Origin: Armatimonadota bacterium
GTDB taxonomy: Bacteria > Armatimonadota > SYMT01
Direction of reading: 5' to 3'
Length of the DNA stretch: 36,911 nt
Assembly: GCA_046292385.1 (NCBI GenBank)
Contig: JBKBRF010000059.1
Coordinates: forward strand, 1-36,911
The position numbers were made by a program, and so were the translations under genes. This document shows positions 4,114 to 9,805 of this stretch, in pieces (the stretch's first letter is position 1; each line of letters opens with the position of its first letter). The notes below the pieces were generated by a model. That model searched no databases, was not told the origin of the DNA, and saw only the letters and a program-made list of their open reading frames with translations.

Positions 4114-6399
4114 TTAAGCTCCCTTCCTCGTCGCAGCGCCCTTTTTACTCGCGAGGGCCGCCAGCACCCGGTCCGGCGTGGCCGGTAGGCTCGTGACGTG
4201 CGTGCCGATGGCGTTGAAGATGGCGTTCGCCACCGCCGCCTGGACGCCGATGACGGCCGGCTCGCCGATACCGCTCACCTTGCCGGTCGGAGTGTCGTAG
4301 ATGATCGTCACCACTCCCTGTTCCTCCGGCCGCAGGGTGCGGTACGGCGGGTCCATGGTGATGTTGATGCCGCCTGCCTCGAAGGAGCCGCAGAGCTTGT
4401 ACTCCTCCAGGTTCGGGTTCAGCATGCGCCCGGTCAGGTTGTCCAGGTGCTTCCGCTCCAGCAGCGCCGTGCCGATGCCCTGGATGATGCCGCCGGTCAC
4501 CTGGCTCTCCGCCTGCAGGCGGTTCAGCACCAGGCCGCAGTCCTGCACGCCGACCACCTTCAGCACCGTCACCTTGCCGGTCTCGGTGTCGACCTCCACC
4601 TCCGCGAAGGTACAGCCGGCGACGCCGCCGGCCTGGAGGTCCGGGTTCCACTCGCCGTGCGCCTTCAGGCCCGCGGCGGGGAGAGTCGCGCAGAGCTGCT
4701 TCCAGGTGAGGCTCTTGGCCGGCTGGCCCTTCACGCGGAAGGTGCCGCCGGTGACCAGCTCCACCTCTTCCGGCTTCGCCTTCAGCGCCTGTGCCGCCGC
4801 GATGACGAGCTTGTCCTTGGCGTCGAGCGCCGCCATCTTCACCGGCGGCGCCACGGAGCCGGTGGTGGTGGAGCCGCCGGAGGCGTGCCCCGGACCGTAC
4901 TCGCTGTGGCCGATCAGCGGGGTCACCTCGTCCAGCTTCAGCCCCAGCTCCTCCGCCACGATCCCCTGCACGTAGAGGCGGAGACCGGTGCCGAGGTCCT
5001 GAACGCCGGAGTAGACCTTGACCGACCCGTCTTTTCCGACAGTGATGCTGCAGTCCGCGCTCTTCCGGCCGCCGCCGCCCCAGATGGCGCTGCCCAGGCC
5101 GATGCCGCGCTTGCGGACCCCAGGCGCCGCGCCGGGGGTTTTCTGGCGCCGGTCCCAGCCGATCACCCGGGCGCCGATCTCCCACTCCTGCACGCGGACC
5201 GGGTCGCTGTGGTTCTTCCGGCGCAGCTCCAGCGGATCCATGTTCAGCTTGGCTGCCAGCTCGTCCAGCGCCATGTCCCAGATCAGCGCCGCCTGGGGAT
5301 GGCCGGGCGCGCGGAGGGCCGCGGTGCCGCCGGTGTTGGTGAGCACCGCCACGCTGGTCGCGCGCCGGGCTTGCGGCTCGATGATGTAGAAGCCCTGGTC
5401 CAGCGGGTATCCCGGCGCGTTGCCGGCGCCGCCGTCCCGGTAGTTCTTCACGTCCGCCGCCAGCAGGGTCCCGTCTTTCGAGGCGGCCAGCTTGACCCGG
5501 GCGATGTAGCCGGGACCGCGGAAGTTGACGATTTGCTCGTCGTAGCGGGTCAGCATGAACCGCACCGGCGCGTTCGCCGCCTTCGCCAGCTTGATCGCCA
5601 TGTCGCCTTCCGGCCCCAGGCCGAACTTGCTGCCGAAGCCGCCGCCCATGTGCTCGCAGATCACGCGGACCTTCGACTGGTCGCCGCCGGCGAAGTCGTT
5701 GGCCACCGAGTCCCGGATGCCGGTGATGAACTGCGTGGACGACCACACGGTGAGCCGGTCGCCGTCCCACTTCGCGGTGTGCCCGTGCGTCTCCAGGCAG
5801 GTATGCAGGCGCGTCTGGGCGTGGTATTCCTGCTCCATCACCACGTCGGCCTTCGCCAGGGCGGCGTCGACTTCCCCGTTCGCCTGCTGGCCGGGGAACT
5901 GCAGGTTGCTCTCCGTATCCGGCCGCACCTTGGGCGAGTTCGGGTCCATCGCCTTATCGAGGTTCACCACGTGCCGGCGCGGCTCGTAGGTGACCTTGAT
6001 GGCGCGGATCGCGTCTTCCGCGATTTCCGGGGTTTTCGCGGCCACCGCGGCGACGAACTCCCCGGCGTAGAGCACGGAGCTGCCCGGCGTCTTCATCGGG
6101 ATCACCGCCATCACGCCCGGGATCTTCTCGGCCGGGCTGACGTCGATCGCGGCGATGCGCGCGGAGGCATACGGCGAGCTGGCGAACCGGCCGTAGCACA
6201 TGCCGGGAAGCACCACGTCCGACGTGTACTTCGCGCGGCCAGTCACCTTGTCCGGACCGTCCGGACGCGGGTTGCGCTTACCCAGGATGCGGAGCTGGCC
6301 CAGGTCCCCCCACGAGGCGGGAGGGCCGTCCGGCACCTCGATCTCCACCTCGCGCTCGAAGCCGTTCTCCACGATGACTTGCTTGACTTTTCTCGCCAT
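4114..6399 (-). CDS. Xanthine dehydrogenase family molybdopterin-binding subunit (PaoC/YagR-like)
   Basis: KVTGRAKY, GGGFGSK, LRAPG, QDLGTG, SGGS, EVEVDTETG, Q.TGGIIQGIG and GIGEP (catalytic Glu). Confidence 0.95.
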   Translation of the reverse strand: MARKVKQVIVENGFEREVEIEVPDGPPASWGDLGQLRILGKRNPRPDGPDKVTGRAKYTSDVVLPGMCYGRFASSPYASARIAAIDVSPAEKIPGVMAVIPMKTPGSSVLYAGEFVAAVAAKTPEIAEDAIRAIKVTYEPRRHVVNLDKAMDPNSPKVRPDTESNLQFPGQQANGEVDAALAKADVVMEQEYHAQTRLHTCLETHGHTAKWDGDRLTVWSSTQFITGIRDSVANDFAGGDQSKVRVICEHMGGGFGSKFGLGPEGDMAIKLAKAANAPVRFMLTRYDEQIVNFRGPGYIARVKLAASKDGTLLAADVKNYRDGGAGNAPGYPLDQGFYIIEPQARRATSVAVLTNTGGTAALRAPGHPQAALIWDMALDELAAKLNMDPLELRRKNHSDPVRVQEWEIGARVIGWDRRQKTPGAAPGVRKRGIGLGSAIWGGGGRKSADCSITVGKDGSVKVYSGVQDLGTGLRLYVQGIVAEELGLKLDEVTPLIGHSEYGPGHASGGSTTTGSVAPPVKMAALDAKDKLVIAAAQALKAKPEEVELVTGGTFRVKGQPAKSLTWKQLCATLPAAGLKAHGEWNPDLQAGGVAGCTFAEVEVDTETGKVTVLKVVGVQDCGLVLNRLQAESQVTGGIIQGIGTALLERKHLDNLTGRMLNPNLEEYKLCGSFEAGGINITMDPPYRTLRPEEQGVVTIIYDTPTGKVSGIGEPAVIGVQAAVANAIFNAIGTHVTSLPATPDRVLAALASKKGAATRKGA

Positions 6400-7863: not shown

Positions 7864-8553
7864 ATGTCGCGTCGACGCGCGTTTACCTTGATCGAGCTGC
7901 TGGTGGTGATTGGGATCATCACCATCCTCGCCGCGATCCTCTTCCCCGTCTTTGCCCAGGCGCGGGACAAGGCGCGGGCCGCCTCGTGTCTCTCCAACTG
8001 CCGCCAGATCGGCATGGCGTTCATGCAGTACACGCAGGACTACGACGAGTACCTGCCGCTCACCACTTATCCGATGCCGTCCAACTCCTGGACCGACACG
8101 GTGCAGGCCTACATCAAGAACCGCAGCATCCTGCGGTGCCCCAGCGACACGAGCCGGAACTGGCTCCAGCCGCTCCCGGGGGAATCGGAGCTCCGGCGCT
8201 CGTCGTTCTTTCTGAACGCCTGGATGTCGGGTGCGGGCGGCTACGGCAGCCTGGCTTCGATCCAGAGCCCCGCCAGCGTCATCTACATGGCGGAGAGCGC
8301 GGAGAACGTCACGCGGGATCACTTCCACCCGTTCTATTGGGGCACCCCCGCGGAGCGGACCAGCGGCTTCATGCAAAACCTGACGTGGGACGCCACGAAG
8401 GGCGAGACGAAAGAGCTGGCGCTCCGGCGCCACCAGGGCGGCTTCAACGTCACCTACCTCGACGGACACGCGAAGTGGGTCCAGTGGACCCGCACCTGGA
8501 ACCACCCGCCCCGCCCGCAGGTCTCCCAGGGCGCCTTCGACCCGCGGCAGTGA
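7864..8553 (+). CDS. Prepilin-type N-terminal cleavage/methylation domain protein (DUF1559-like, H-X9-DG)
   Basis: RBS GGAGG at 7851, then [38 protein letters not shown] and RHQGGFNVTYLDGHAK. The ORF-track start at 7501 is too far upstream. Confidence 0.92.
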   Translation: MSRRRAFTLIELLVVIGIITILAAILFPVFAQARDKARAASCLSNCRQIGMAFMQYTQDYDEYLPLTTYPMPSNSWTDTVQAYIKNRSILRCPSDTSRNWLQPLPGESELRRSSFFLNAWMSGAGGYGSLASIQSPASVIYMAESAENVTRDHFHPFYWGTPAERTSGFMQNLTWDATKGETKELALRRHQGGFNVTYLDGHAKWVQWTRTWNHPPRPQVSQGAFDPRQ

Positions 8554-8579
8554 GACAGCCTCGGCAGGGACGTAACCAG

Positions 8580-8630
8580 GTGTAAGAAGAGGAGATGGGG
8601 GGATGGGATGGGGATAGGGGGATGAATTGG
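8580..8630 (+). repeat. Left end of GTGTAAG/GGGGAT element (orphan end)
   Basis: GTGTAAGAAGAGGAGATGGGGGGATGGGATGGGGATAGGGGGATGAATT matches the left ends at 9012 and 9532. Confidence 0.8.
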
Positions 8631-8737
8631 AGCTGGCACCGCCCGTCGCTCGGCTCCTGCGGCCACGGGCAGGGGACCTTTAGCGCCCGCCCCCGGCCTG
8701 GCGATACCGGAGCAGTAGTCGGAAATGGAGGTGGGCT

Positions 8738-9001
8738 ATGGAACGAGAGCGCCAGGAGTGGAGCGACCGGACGGAGCGGGACGACCGCTTTTGAGCCGAT
8801 GCGCAAGCGACGCCGCGGCTTCCCGTCAGAGACGAACGTCGGCCGCGGGCTCCGGGTCGTGCACGGGGACAAAGTGCTGGATGAGAAGCTCGGGAAGGAA
8901 GACCCCTGCCCCTGCGGCTCCGGACGCCGCTTTCAAGCGCTGCTGCCGCAACTCCGGCCGGTACGACGGCGCGCCGCGCCAGGTCTACTTTCCGCGAGTG
9001 A
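8738..9001 (+). CDS. SEC-C (CPCGSG..FK.CC) zinc-motif small protein, interrupted by three +1 frame changes (recoded gene or pseudogene)
   Basis: SD GGAGGT at 8727 and ATG at 8738. Frame changes at TTT 8789, TTT 8931 and TTT 8989. The second restores [13 protein letters not shown], and TGA follows at 8999. Confidence 0.65.
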
Positions 9002-9011
9002 CCGGGCAGGA

Positions 9012-9217
9012 GTGTAAGAAAAGGGGATAGGGGGATGTGGTGGGGATAAGGGGATGAATTGATCAAGCGCAACCTACGGCGCCGCGACTACCCACCGGGA
9101 ACGACGCGGGCGCGCTAACAATCTACGGTCGCCTGGCCGCAGCTGCCCCACGTCGCGCGGACCAGGGGAGTTTCATCTCCCCATCCCCATCTCATCCCCC
9201 CATCCCCTTCCTTACAC
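9012..9217 (+). mobile_element. MITE-like element with GTGTAAG...CTTACAC termini and GGGGAT/ATCCCC subterminal repeats
   Basis: Terminal IR plus internal motifs (TGATCA..CCTAC.GCGCCG; ACCAGGGGAGTTTCATCTCCC) shared with 9532-9805. Confidence 0.7.
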
Positions 9218-9241
9218 ATCCCAATCCCGCGCCTCCGCCGG

Positions 9242-9250
9242 TGGTATACT
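9242..9250 (+). promoter_or_regulatory. Extended -10 element TGGTATACT
   Basis: TGnTATACT 9 nt before ATG 9260, with no SD. Confidence 0.5.
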
Positions 9251-9259
9251 CGTTCCGTT

Positions 9260-9520
9260 ATGACGCGGAGCGACACTGCCAATTCGGGCTCGGGGACTCT
9301 CGAGGAGGCAGTCAACCTGCTGGCGGATGAGTACCGCGTCCGCTGCCTCTGGTTCCTGCGTCCGGACTACTACCCCGAGACCCTGGAGGAGCGCCTGCGG
9401 GTGCTCGAGTATATCCAGTGGCACGGAGACCTCTCTGCCTTCCGCCGCGCCGGCGAGCTGCGCCGATGCCTCTTACGGATTTCCAACGAGAGATCTGCCG
9501 AAGAACCAGCCGCCGCGTAA
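9260..9520 (+). CDS. Hypothetical protein (YR.RCLWFL..DY motif), putative antitoxin partner of a nucleotidyltransferase toxin
   Basis: 86-aa ORF with its own promoter. The family resemblance is recalled, not searched. Confidence 0.65.
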   Translation: MTRSDTANSGSGTLEEAVNLLADEYRVRCLWFLRPDYYPETLEERLRVLEYIQWHGDLSAFRRAGELRRCLLRISNERSAEEPAAA

Positions 9521-9537
9521 TCGGCGGAACGGTGTAA
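9466..9537 (+). pseudogene. Truncated N-terminus (MPLTDFQREIC...) of a probable AbiEii-like nucleotidyltransferase
   Basis: The ATG overlaps the 3' end of 9260-9520. The frame stops after 23 codons at the TAA inside the repeat terminus GTGTAAG. Confidence 0.4.
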
Positions 9538-9805
9538 GAAAAGGGGATGTGGGGATGGGGATAAGGGGATGTTCTGATCAGGTCAGACCTACAGCGCCGG
9601 GGCGGGACGTAAGTAACGCCAGCTTTTCGAGCCACCGCGTCTTAGCCCGCGCAGGCGGGCTTCGCTTTCTGTAGCCTCGACTTCAGTCCGAGGCGCGGCG
9701 CTGACGAGCGACGACTACGGGGCCTCAGTAGCTCCACGTGACACGAACCAGGGGGAGTTTCATCTCCCTATCCCCAGTTCATCCCCCTATCCCCTCTTCT
9801 TACAC
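9532..9805 (+). mobile_element. Second full GTGTAAG...CTTACAC MITE-like element, containing a GTAG-type REP
   Basis: Same termini as 9012-9217. Internal TTAGCCCGCGCAGGCGGGCTT and GTAGCCTCGACTTCAGTCCGAGGCG (about 9642-9695). Confidence 0.7.

Follow-up and report, generated by a model that had tools for sequence, protein, structure and literature searches.

A conserved family of small SEC-C zinc-motif genes probably read through several +1 ribosomal frameshifts at UUU_Y codons

Introduction

Can a small gene whose reading frame breaks three times still encode a functional protein? This question is raised by a locus on a 36,911 nt stretch (positions 1–36,911 of contig JBKBRF010000059.1, assembly GCA_046292385.1) from an Armatimonadota bacterium, whose genome we label G000; the whole stretch is called the window here. 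Positions 8738–9001 of the window yield an 86-amino-acid protein with a SEC-C zinc motif only if TTT followed by T or C is read as a four-base step at 8789–8792, 8931–8934 and 8989–8992. The original prediction, made from the letters of the window alone, interpreted the three breaks as +1 frameshifts at Phe codons, and considered three accidental T insertions improbable. Our analysis leads to a similar view, which we hold with a probability of roughly 0.8: judged from sequence comparison, this is a real gene, and its mRNA would be read through three evolutionarily selected +1 ribosomal frameshifts to give the 86-amino-acid product. According to the text of Atkins et al. (2016, PMC5009743), bacterial ribosomes have a marked tendency to shift to the +1 frame at UUU_Ynn sequences (Y, U or C), whether or not a stop codon comes next, and tRNA undermodification raises frameshifting.

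Results

A zinc-motif gene spread over three reading frames

In the standard reading, frame 1 runs for 18 codons from the ATG at position 8738 and is then closed by the TGA at 8792. When every in-frame TTT plus the base that follows it is treated as a +1 step, exactly three such steps arise (F18, TTTT; F65, TTTC; F84, TTTC), and the segments listed in Table 1 join into the complete product. The fourth Phe of the gene, within a Gly-Phe-Pro (GFP) sequence, is encoded by TTC and decoded in frame. Three of the four Phe codons are TTT, set against 7.4% TTT (3050 of 41178 Phe codons) in the 2653 long open reading frames (ORFs) of G000 that were used for all genome codon counts, after filtering by G+C content at third codon positions (GC3). 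The T runs at the three sites comprise only three or four T. Re-reading the sequence confirmed the predicted Shine–Dalgarno (SD) sequence, the start codon, the position and reading of all three sites, the length of the product and the ordinary decoding of the GFP codon.

The second shift had been proposed to complete the SEC-C motif, and the second Cys pair is indeed encoded only downstream of it. The Pfam SEC-C model (PF02810) matched the shifted product with 32.8 bits (E value 6e-8; gathering cut-off 20.4) and the unshifted frame with 22 bits (E value 1.5e-4), the lower score arising because the second Cys pair lies past shift 2. A promoter and terminator scan of window positions 8450–9350 found neither, and Rfam at a permissive threshold gave no match relevant to the SEC-C gene.

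Table 1. Features of the SEC-C locus and its surroundings (window coordinates)
Feature	Position	Strand	Basis
Shine–Dalgarno sequence GGAGGT, 5 nt 5' of ATG 8738	8727–8732	+	direct sequence reading
Segment A, frame 1, 18 codons, the last being slip codon TTT (8789–8791)	8738–8791	+	translation
Shift site 1, CGC TTT/T GAG; T8792 skipped; 0-frame TGA 8792–8794	8789–8795	+	translation
Segment B, frame 2, 47 codons to CPCGSGRRF, first half of the SEC-C zinc motif	8793–8933	+	translation, Pfam
Shift site 2, CGC TTT/C AAG; TTT 8931–8933; C8934 skipped; 0-frame CAA	8931–8937	+	translation
Segment C, frame 3, 19 codons (KRCC...QVYF), CC finishing the zinc motif	8935–8991	+	translation, Pfam
Shift site 3 and gene end, TAC TTT/C CGC GAG TGA; TTT 8989–8991; C8992 skipped; Arg-Glu-stop, stop 8999–9001	8989–9001	+	translation
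GGGGAT-rich dispersed repeat upstream of the gene, ~50 nt	8580–8629	+	~30 places in genome, raised contig depth
Further repeat copies	9012–9061, 9532–9581	+	repeat search
Inverted repeat partners	9165–9208, 9752–9805	inverted	repeat search

The shift sites are conserved in relatives from many phyla

A six-frame search of 60 related genomes gave family-specific matches in six (G043, G013, G021, G050, G047 and G017; labels beginning with G and L are our own, for genomes and loci), and all six homologues were broken like the window gene. When TTT plus T or C is read as a +1 step, the window gene and these six give proteins of 80–87 amino acids, the homologues being 64–71% identical to the window product; F18, F65, F84 and all four Cys are among the residues invariant in the seven. 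When 401 genomes of the phylum were searched with a profile, 30 of them (counting G000) proved to have the family, with E values of about 2e-18 or lower. Finally, a scan of prokaryotes with one genome per species produced at least 589 stretches confirmed by tblastn, from which the best 80 were taken. Represented among these 80 are Planctomycetota, Acidobacteriota, Armatimonadota, Chloroflexota, Verrucomicrobiota, Gemmatimonadota, Pseudomonadota, Melainabacteria and further groups, and the closest are from Armatimonadota Chthonomonadaceae (76–82%). Cultured isolates with the gene are found in the cross-phylum scan as well, among them Stieleria magnilauensis TBK1r, Sphingomonas naasensis KIS18-15, Hansschlegelia plantiphila, Snodgrassella alvi and Rhizobium puerariae. 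Across more than 100 loci of many phyla, protein identity is 55–80%. The full set comprised 108 distinct loci, of which 100 were evaluable for site counts; L046, L056, L104, L079 and L093 were set aside as decayed or aberrant, and L057, L069 and L099 because of a contig end or the lack of a start.

The rule that TTT_Y means +1 restored an intact protein of the family pattern at 87 of the 108 loci. The standard code left two intact, both spurious, with middle-frame GTG or TTG starts that have no SD sequence and products that miss the true ends. Eleven control rules restored between 0 and 10 loci each, among them TTT_R (2), TTC_N (0), TTC_Y (2), CTT_Y (3), AAA_R (2), CCC_Y (1), GGG_N (5), CGC_Y (10), TAC_Y (2) and AAG_N (0), while the related rule TTT_N restored 69. 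An alignment that allows for frameshifts, run without any slip motif to guide it, placed the +1 events directly after conserved Phe columns. Among the evaluable loci there were 263 shift sites, made up of TTT_C (133), TTT_T (119), CTT_T (3) and others (8), and at 121 of them a 0-frame stop codon directly follows the slip codon. Most genes have three sites (62 loci) or two (33); four were found in two loci, one in three and zero in none, and three-frame views of the single-site loci L048, L051 and L089 show one more site in each. The original prediction asked whether homologues keep the extra base at the same sites, and this was borne out across the 108 loci.

Site 1 follows an N-terminal peptide that varies among homologues and ends in Phe in nearly all of them. 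An ATG or GTG preceded by an SD sequence lies in frame upstream of this site at 94 of the 108 loci. Across all 108, the site itself is TTT_T with TGA in 44, TTT_C with CGA in 36 and CTT_T with TGA in 2 (L037 and L045). In 46 of 92 loci, site 1 closes an SD-driven ORF of 11–25 codons with a stop codon; in L010 its place is taken by an in-frame TTC. A shift at site 2 was found in 88 of the 108 loci, 81 of these at TTT_Y, and the 20 non-shifters have TTC (18), TTT-A (1) or CTG (1) in its place. Site 3 shifts in 57 of the 100 evaluable loci, 41 of them with a 0-frame stop codon. The C-terminus, YF-R(E/D)-stop, is conserved among homologues, and the Arg of site 3 is mostly AGG or AGA in the family, which places TAG or CAG in the 0 frame.

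Additional sites were seen in individual loci. L062 has CTT_T with a 0-frame TGA at a site designated 2b. L011 has a fourth site within GRF/DG (TTT C GAC), in a column that is an in-frame TTT GAC in L009 and L010 and TAC or TAT elsewhere. In the viral locus L155 (a 532 kb contig, L155:4880–5300), the Phe codon of GFPSE is one of the +1 sites (TTT C CCC), and site 1 needs no shift; at its site 2b a T7 run calls for either a pair of consecutive +1 steps or a single −1 step. That every in-frame TTT codon is a shift site, as claimed in the original prediction, held for the window gene. It did not hold for the family, where TTT-G and TTT-A are decoded in frame in relatives and L033 and L105 read the GFPSE Phe in frame from TTT_C, nor did it hold for the genome (see below).

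Selection follows the shifted frames

The original prediction proposed purifying selection in each successive frame, and the check showed codon-position periodicity that follows the shifts. In the segment that runs from site 1 to site 2, pairwise identity averaged 0.79, 0.81 and 0.40 at codon positions 1, 2 and 3 (103 loci). After site 2, in the +1 frame, it was 0.66, 0.71 and 0.44 in shifters and 0.70, 0.71 and 0.42 in non-shifters, and for the two codons after site 3 it was 0.83, 0.97 and 0.34. The third codon position is the variable one in each successive frame.

The lengths of the T runs were also checked in independent DNA, as the original prediction had suggested, with soil-metagenome contigs from three runs of two further studies. 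X2 spans all three sites, X3 the first and the third, and X4 the first; a further run, X1, is probably the source sample and thus not independent. No indel was present at any covered site in X2, X3 or X4, and the T runs were the same. In near-identical soil contigs there were 23 substitutions, of which 3 lay 5' of the ATG, 1 past the stop codon and 19 inside the gene. In frame 2, 13 of the 14 substitutions are at third codon positions, as are all 5 in frame 3, together 18 of 19.

Slip-site context and the tRNA complement of the genome

In the window, the slip codon of site 1 is followed in the 0 frame by a TGA stop, that of site 2 by CAA (3.7% of Gln codons in G000) and that of site 3 by CCG, which makes up 70% of Pro codons. 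Nearly all TTT_T sites of the family have a 0-frame stop codon next. The commonest sense codons after the TTT_C sites are CGA and CAA, both rare in G000 (CGA, 4.4% of Arg codons). At site 2, 32 of 88 shifters carry GGGAGG at the prfB distance of 3 nt upstream of TTT, or a weaker resemblance to an SD sequence; none of the 20 non-shifters does. In the long ORFs of G000, TTT_C is enriched and TTT_T is depleted (8.4%, compared with 13.2% for T after TTC).

G000 has a single, ordinary tRNA-Phe with a GAA anticodon, and miaA is present. ARAGORN called two tRNA-SeC genes in this genome (on C11 and C77). We also observed two tandem tRNA-like genes with 8 nt anticodon loops (CU-CUCU-AA and CU-CGAA-AC) and identical D and T arms, at G000:C5:199142–199303 (L138:6143–6304). 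Immediately upstream of them lie an ORF for an HNH endonuclease and a 473-amino-acid ORF with no Pfam match. The pair of tRNA-like genes could be natural frameshift-suppressor-like tRNAs or decayed copies.

The protein product

The C-terminal half of the product is a zinc (SEC-C) knuckle of the SecA type, C-x-C-x8-C-C, and the N-terminal half is basic and family-specific, with a pattern ending.xV.RG.RVVHGDKEL. With the C-terminal metal-binding domain of SecA and with YecA and YchJ it has in common the motif ...LG(R/K)xDPCPCGSG(R/K)(R/K)(F/Y)KxCC. In contrast to those proteins, members of the window family are stand-alone proteins of about 80 amino acids with a basic N-terminal half of their own, and the SEC-C motif itself is cut by a frameshift. 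No NCBIfam model matched the product at cut-off; models of the YecA and YchJ type reached 12–31 bits against cut-offs of 68–267, on the terminal motif only, and we rejected membership in YecA/YchJ (UPF0149/UPF0225) because the full-length cut-offs were not reached.

The nearest solved chains were the YchJ C-terminus (9L6B chain C) and zinc-binding peptides of SecA (1SX0 and 1OZB). AlphaFold2 modelling on 80 in-frame segments gave low confidence (mean predicted local distance difference test score, pLDDT, 68.8; predicted template modelling score, pTM, 0.47), and a search of the ESM Atlas returned SEC-C clusters only, some of them viral. In public annotation the family appears as fragments that end at shift sites, under the names 'SEC-C metal-binding domain-containing protein', 'nucleic acid-binding protein', YecA and YchJ.

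Genomic neighbourhood and mobile elements

The family gene lies inside or beside same-strand tRNA arrays of 4–32 genes in 9 of the 80 cross-phylum loci (L062, L075, L133, L091, L094, L095, L098, L113 and L120, all bacterial), and 1–3 tRNA genes are nearby in 4 more. In L062 and L075 it is placed between tRNA-Arg(GCG) and tRNA-Cys. Three viral contigs carry true family members, and in two of them tRNA genes surround the gene: L154 has 21, three of which are tRNA-Phe, and L155 has 7. Searches of phage records gave generic SEC-C matches only, and two plasmid records had a family match with no feature annotated beneath it. One of these, on a Candidatus Manganitrophus plasmid (L234, CP114562.1), is a family member at 5001–5147 without a listed feature; it is flanked on one side by a tyrosine recombinase and on the other by a SIR2-family protein followed by two ATP-binding proteins, and the surroundings have the look of a defence island.

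The neighbourhood check for RNA-repair genes suggested in the original prediction succeeded in part, in that RtcB, Ro60 and tRNA arrays were seen, at a minority of loci only. The recurrent neighbours among 78 loci were RtcB (4), HNH endonuclease (4), Ro60/TROVE (3) and SPFH (3). Clustering of 1927 flanking ORFs from these loci gave no cluster present in more than four, and no conserved protein-coding neighbour. In Anabaena, long tRNA arrays with linked and co-induced HNH and rtcB genes are induced by translational stress, according to the text of PMC8421152. Members of the family likewise occur inside same-strand arrays of 9–32 tRNA genes adjoining HNH and RtcB genes. However, an SEC-C gene is not mentioned in the text of that paper, figure 6B and supplements aside, and most members of the family, the window copy included, lie outside arrays.

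The window copy is flanked by a DUF1559/prepilin-type gene upstream and a small ORF downstream, with GGGGAT-rich repeats on both sides that bracket the SEC-C gene and the next small ORF. That ORF (9260–9520, +) encodes 86 amino acids without a Pfam match and lies between repeat copies. The repeat copy just past the stop codon and its inverted partner form a long hairpin-like element (9012–9217) with weak matches to microRNA precursors in Rfam. A single 24 nt match to Rfam CRISPR-DR28 (39.9 bits; gathering threshold 35) was found at 9643–9666 on the reverse strand.

Discussion

A putative route through stacked slips

We propose that peptidyl-tRNA-Phe (anticodon GAA) on UUU in the ribosomal P site would move forward by one base and pair with UUU or UUC instead. 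This slip would compete with decoding of the 0-frame codon in the A site: UGA at the first site, the rare CAA at the second and CCG at the third. The stop codons, the rare sense codons and the SD-like matches around family sites would fit such a race. A ribosome would have to slip three times to make the zinc-binding protein; the others would stop after 18 residues or release products that lack the second Cys pair. Full-length yield would be the product of two to four slip efficiencies, and because stacked sites multiply their efficiencies, low output would be expected, together with a steep response to UUU_Y slippage and to slow A-site decoding or termination.

Several observations weigh against this reading, or limit it. 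The genome does not avoid TTT_Y: 1521 in-frame cases occur in its long ORFs, and TTT_CCG, the context of site 3 in the window, is the commonest pair (313 cases). These in-frame cases rule out TTT_Y as an obligate shift signal. Since TTT_Y is common in ordinary ORFs, slippage must be inefficient or dependent on context, and the yield after three sites is possibly tiny. An SD-like stimulator at prfB spacing is present at none of the three window sites; the original prediction had noted its lack at site 1, correctly, and the same applies to sites 2 and 3. A few sites in the family break elsewhere than at TTT_Y or CTT_T, for example at TTT_A in L041, TTT_G in L102, TAT_T in L049 and after TTC in L116, and therefore fall outside a simple re-pairing rule. 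Some copies are decaying: L046 (G313, duplicated as L073) has lost a Cys and the stop codon, L056 (G343) has an insertion of about 130 nt in mid-gene, and L104 combines a Cys-to-Arg change with an indel that is not at TTT. As for a role in stress sensing, tRNA and RNA-repair neighbours occur at a minority of loci, and the window copy is without them.

Alternative explanations

The most obvious alternative is a pseudogene or an error of sequencing or assembly, the gene being a defunct SEC-C gene that has gained a single base by accident at three places. Public gene callers do present the family as fragments, and a few relatives (the three decaying copies above) have truly decayed. However, the sites are common to more than 100 diverged loci of many phyla, every evaluable locus retains at least one shift site, codon periodicity follows each frame and independent contigs carry identical T runs. 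The prediction that three accidental insertions are improbable therefore stands, and taken together the periodicity, the conserved sites and the contigs without indels exclude sequencing error and simple decay for both the family and the window copy; we give this explanation hardly any credence. Correction at the RNA level, through polymerase slippage or editing that drops one U per T run, is harder to separate from a ribosomal shift, as the product of a one-U deletion would be identical to the +1 product, and T7 runs do occur in a few planctomycete and viral copies such as L074 and L155. Homopolymers known to cause transcriptional slippage are far longer than three or four T, the length found at most family sites. 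Moreover, the 0-frame stop codons and the SD-like element at prfB spacing are signals to ribosomes, not to polymerases. Correction by the ribosome is thus the probable case, and an RNA-level mechanism appears very unlikely.

Alternatively, decoding might depend on a special tRNA of the quadruplet or suppressor type, whose anticodon loop is expanded, and not on slippage by ordinary tRNA-Phe. The tandem tRNA-like genes of G000 are the obvious candidates, since one of the 8 nt loops includes GAA and has discriminator base A. Yet a CGAA anticodon would pair with UUCG and not with UUU-Y. The two genes are 79% alike and only 75% identical to tRNA-Phe, and in a DNA search of 401 genomes the matches were mostly ordinary tRNAs picked up by their shared arms, with tRNA-Lys and tRNA-Gln the closest. 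The arrays that bear the gene show ordinary tRNA-Phe(gaa) and no Phe-like tRNA with an 8 nt loop, and in-frame TTT_Y is common in normal genes and also present inside the family (L033 and L105). No tRNA with an expanded anticodon complementary to UUUY was found in G000, and no counterpart with an 8 nt loop in relatives or in gene-bearing arrays, whole-genome co-occurrence not having been surveyed. As the slip is probabilistic, ordinary ribosomal slippage is favoured over deterministic four-base decoding, and a dedicated tRNA seems to us a very improbable agent. It is also conceivable that the protein is beside the point, and that the act of translation or its short products matter, with stalling or termination controlling adjoining RNA genes such as tRNA arrays. 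The position of the gene inside same-strand tRNA arrays in several phyla and the short SD-driven ORF that stops at site 1 in half of the loci examined for it would fit such a leader-like role. Most loci, the window included, are nevertheless without tRNA neighbours, and third-position periodicity extends to the conserved residues encoded after each shift, among them both Cys pairs and the closing YF-RE, a pattern that demands selection on the full-length protein. We consider a leader-like ORF unlikely.

Relation to known frameshift systems

Slippage at several UUU_Y sites by ordinary tRNA-Phe, the reading we prefer, has its closest parallel in prfB (CUU_UGA_C, with an SD sequence 3 nt upstream), where a P-site +1 slip onto an overlapping cognate or near-cognate codon competes with a slow 0-frame A-site codon. 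The slip proposed for the family is of this type, and the family resembles prfB in its 0-frame stop codons (121 of 263 sites), in the SD-like element, at prfB spacing or weaker, of about a third of its site 2 shifters, and in the use of CTT_T itself at three sites. A minority of prfB genes have UUU_U in place of CUU_U, as stated in the text of PMC5009743. Unlike prfB, however, the family genes have two to four sites and not one, the slip codon is Phe UUU, and the 0-frame codon is a sense codon (CGA, CAA, CAG or CCG) at about half of them. The frameshift of prfB, the gene for release factor 2, is autoregulatory, whereas any tie of the family product to termination would be hypothetical. The prfB gene of G000 (C6:109189–110232, reverse strand, with C6:110696–110779; adjoining secA) appears to be uninterrupted, as one 364-amino-acid frame that matches the model from position 7, and the usual programmed frameshift is apparently absent.

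Primary work on UUU_Y slippage and on tRNA undermodification includes that of Fu and Parker (1994), Schwartz and Curran (1997) and Urbonavicius et al. (2001). Shift-prone UUU_Y sites are described, in PMC5009743 and PMC5052127, for E. coli argI, Yersinia YopN-TyeA, a rhizobial activator of an integrative and conjugative element (ICE), influenza PA-X (UCC_UUU_CGU) and amalgaviruses (UUU_CGN). As presented there, these sites have the same tetranucleotide and presumed tRNA-Phe re-pairing as the family, but each is single and mostly gives a minor extra product or an error, whereas the sites of the family are several and would be obligatory for its only conserved product. The family also differs in consisting of cellular genes distributed over many phyla. 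Full-text searches, and the text of PMC5009743, PMC3711429, PMC8421152 and PMC10272220, figures and supplements aside, gave no description of a recoded SEC-C family. The slip site and the mechanism are already known in kind; it is the stacked, obligatory and widely conserved arrangement that appears to be new. To our knowledge, very few bacterial cellular genes depend on +1 frameshifting, prfB being the classic case, with one site each.

Possible function and significance

The original prediction suggested that the gene may act as a sensor of translational fidelity. A regulatory or sensor role in translation stress or tRNA stress, with the stacked slips forming a steep gate, is possible though doubtful, and we put its odds at roughly one in three. 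The context of tRNA arrays, RtcB, Ro60 and HNH genes fits a role in translation stress without proving one. A fuller version, which we offer more tentatively still, is a multi-step gate in which two to four UUU_Y slips might turn small changes in frame maintenance or in the speed of A-site decoding into a steep, switch-like output of a small SecA-like zinc protein. The protein might then act on ribosomes or RNA during translation stress, and its gene might spread together with tRNA arrays, RtcB and Ro60 in a mobile set that serves translation repair or counter-defence. Triggers of such a gate could be the modification state of A37 in tRNA-Phe, the supply of release factor or rare tRNAs, or nuclease damage to tRNA, and the system would amount to a prfB-like feedback extended to global decoding capacity.

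If the proposed route is correct, this family would represent the densest recoding known in bacteria and would naturally report on how well the reading frame is kept at UUU_Y. Such recoding would also explain why annotation pipelines list just 50–70-amino-acid 'SEC-C domain' fragments at these loci. The tRNA-array and RNA-repair neighbours offer a testable lead to how cells and mobile elements may sense failing translation.

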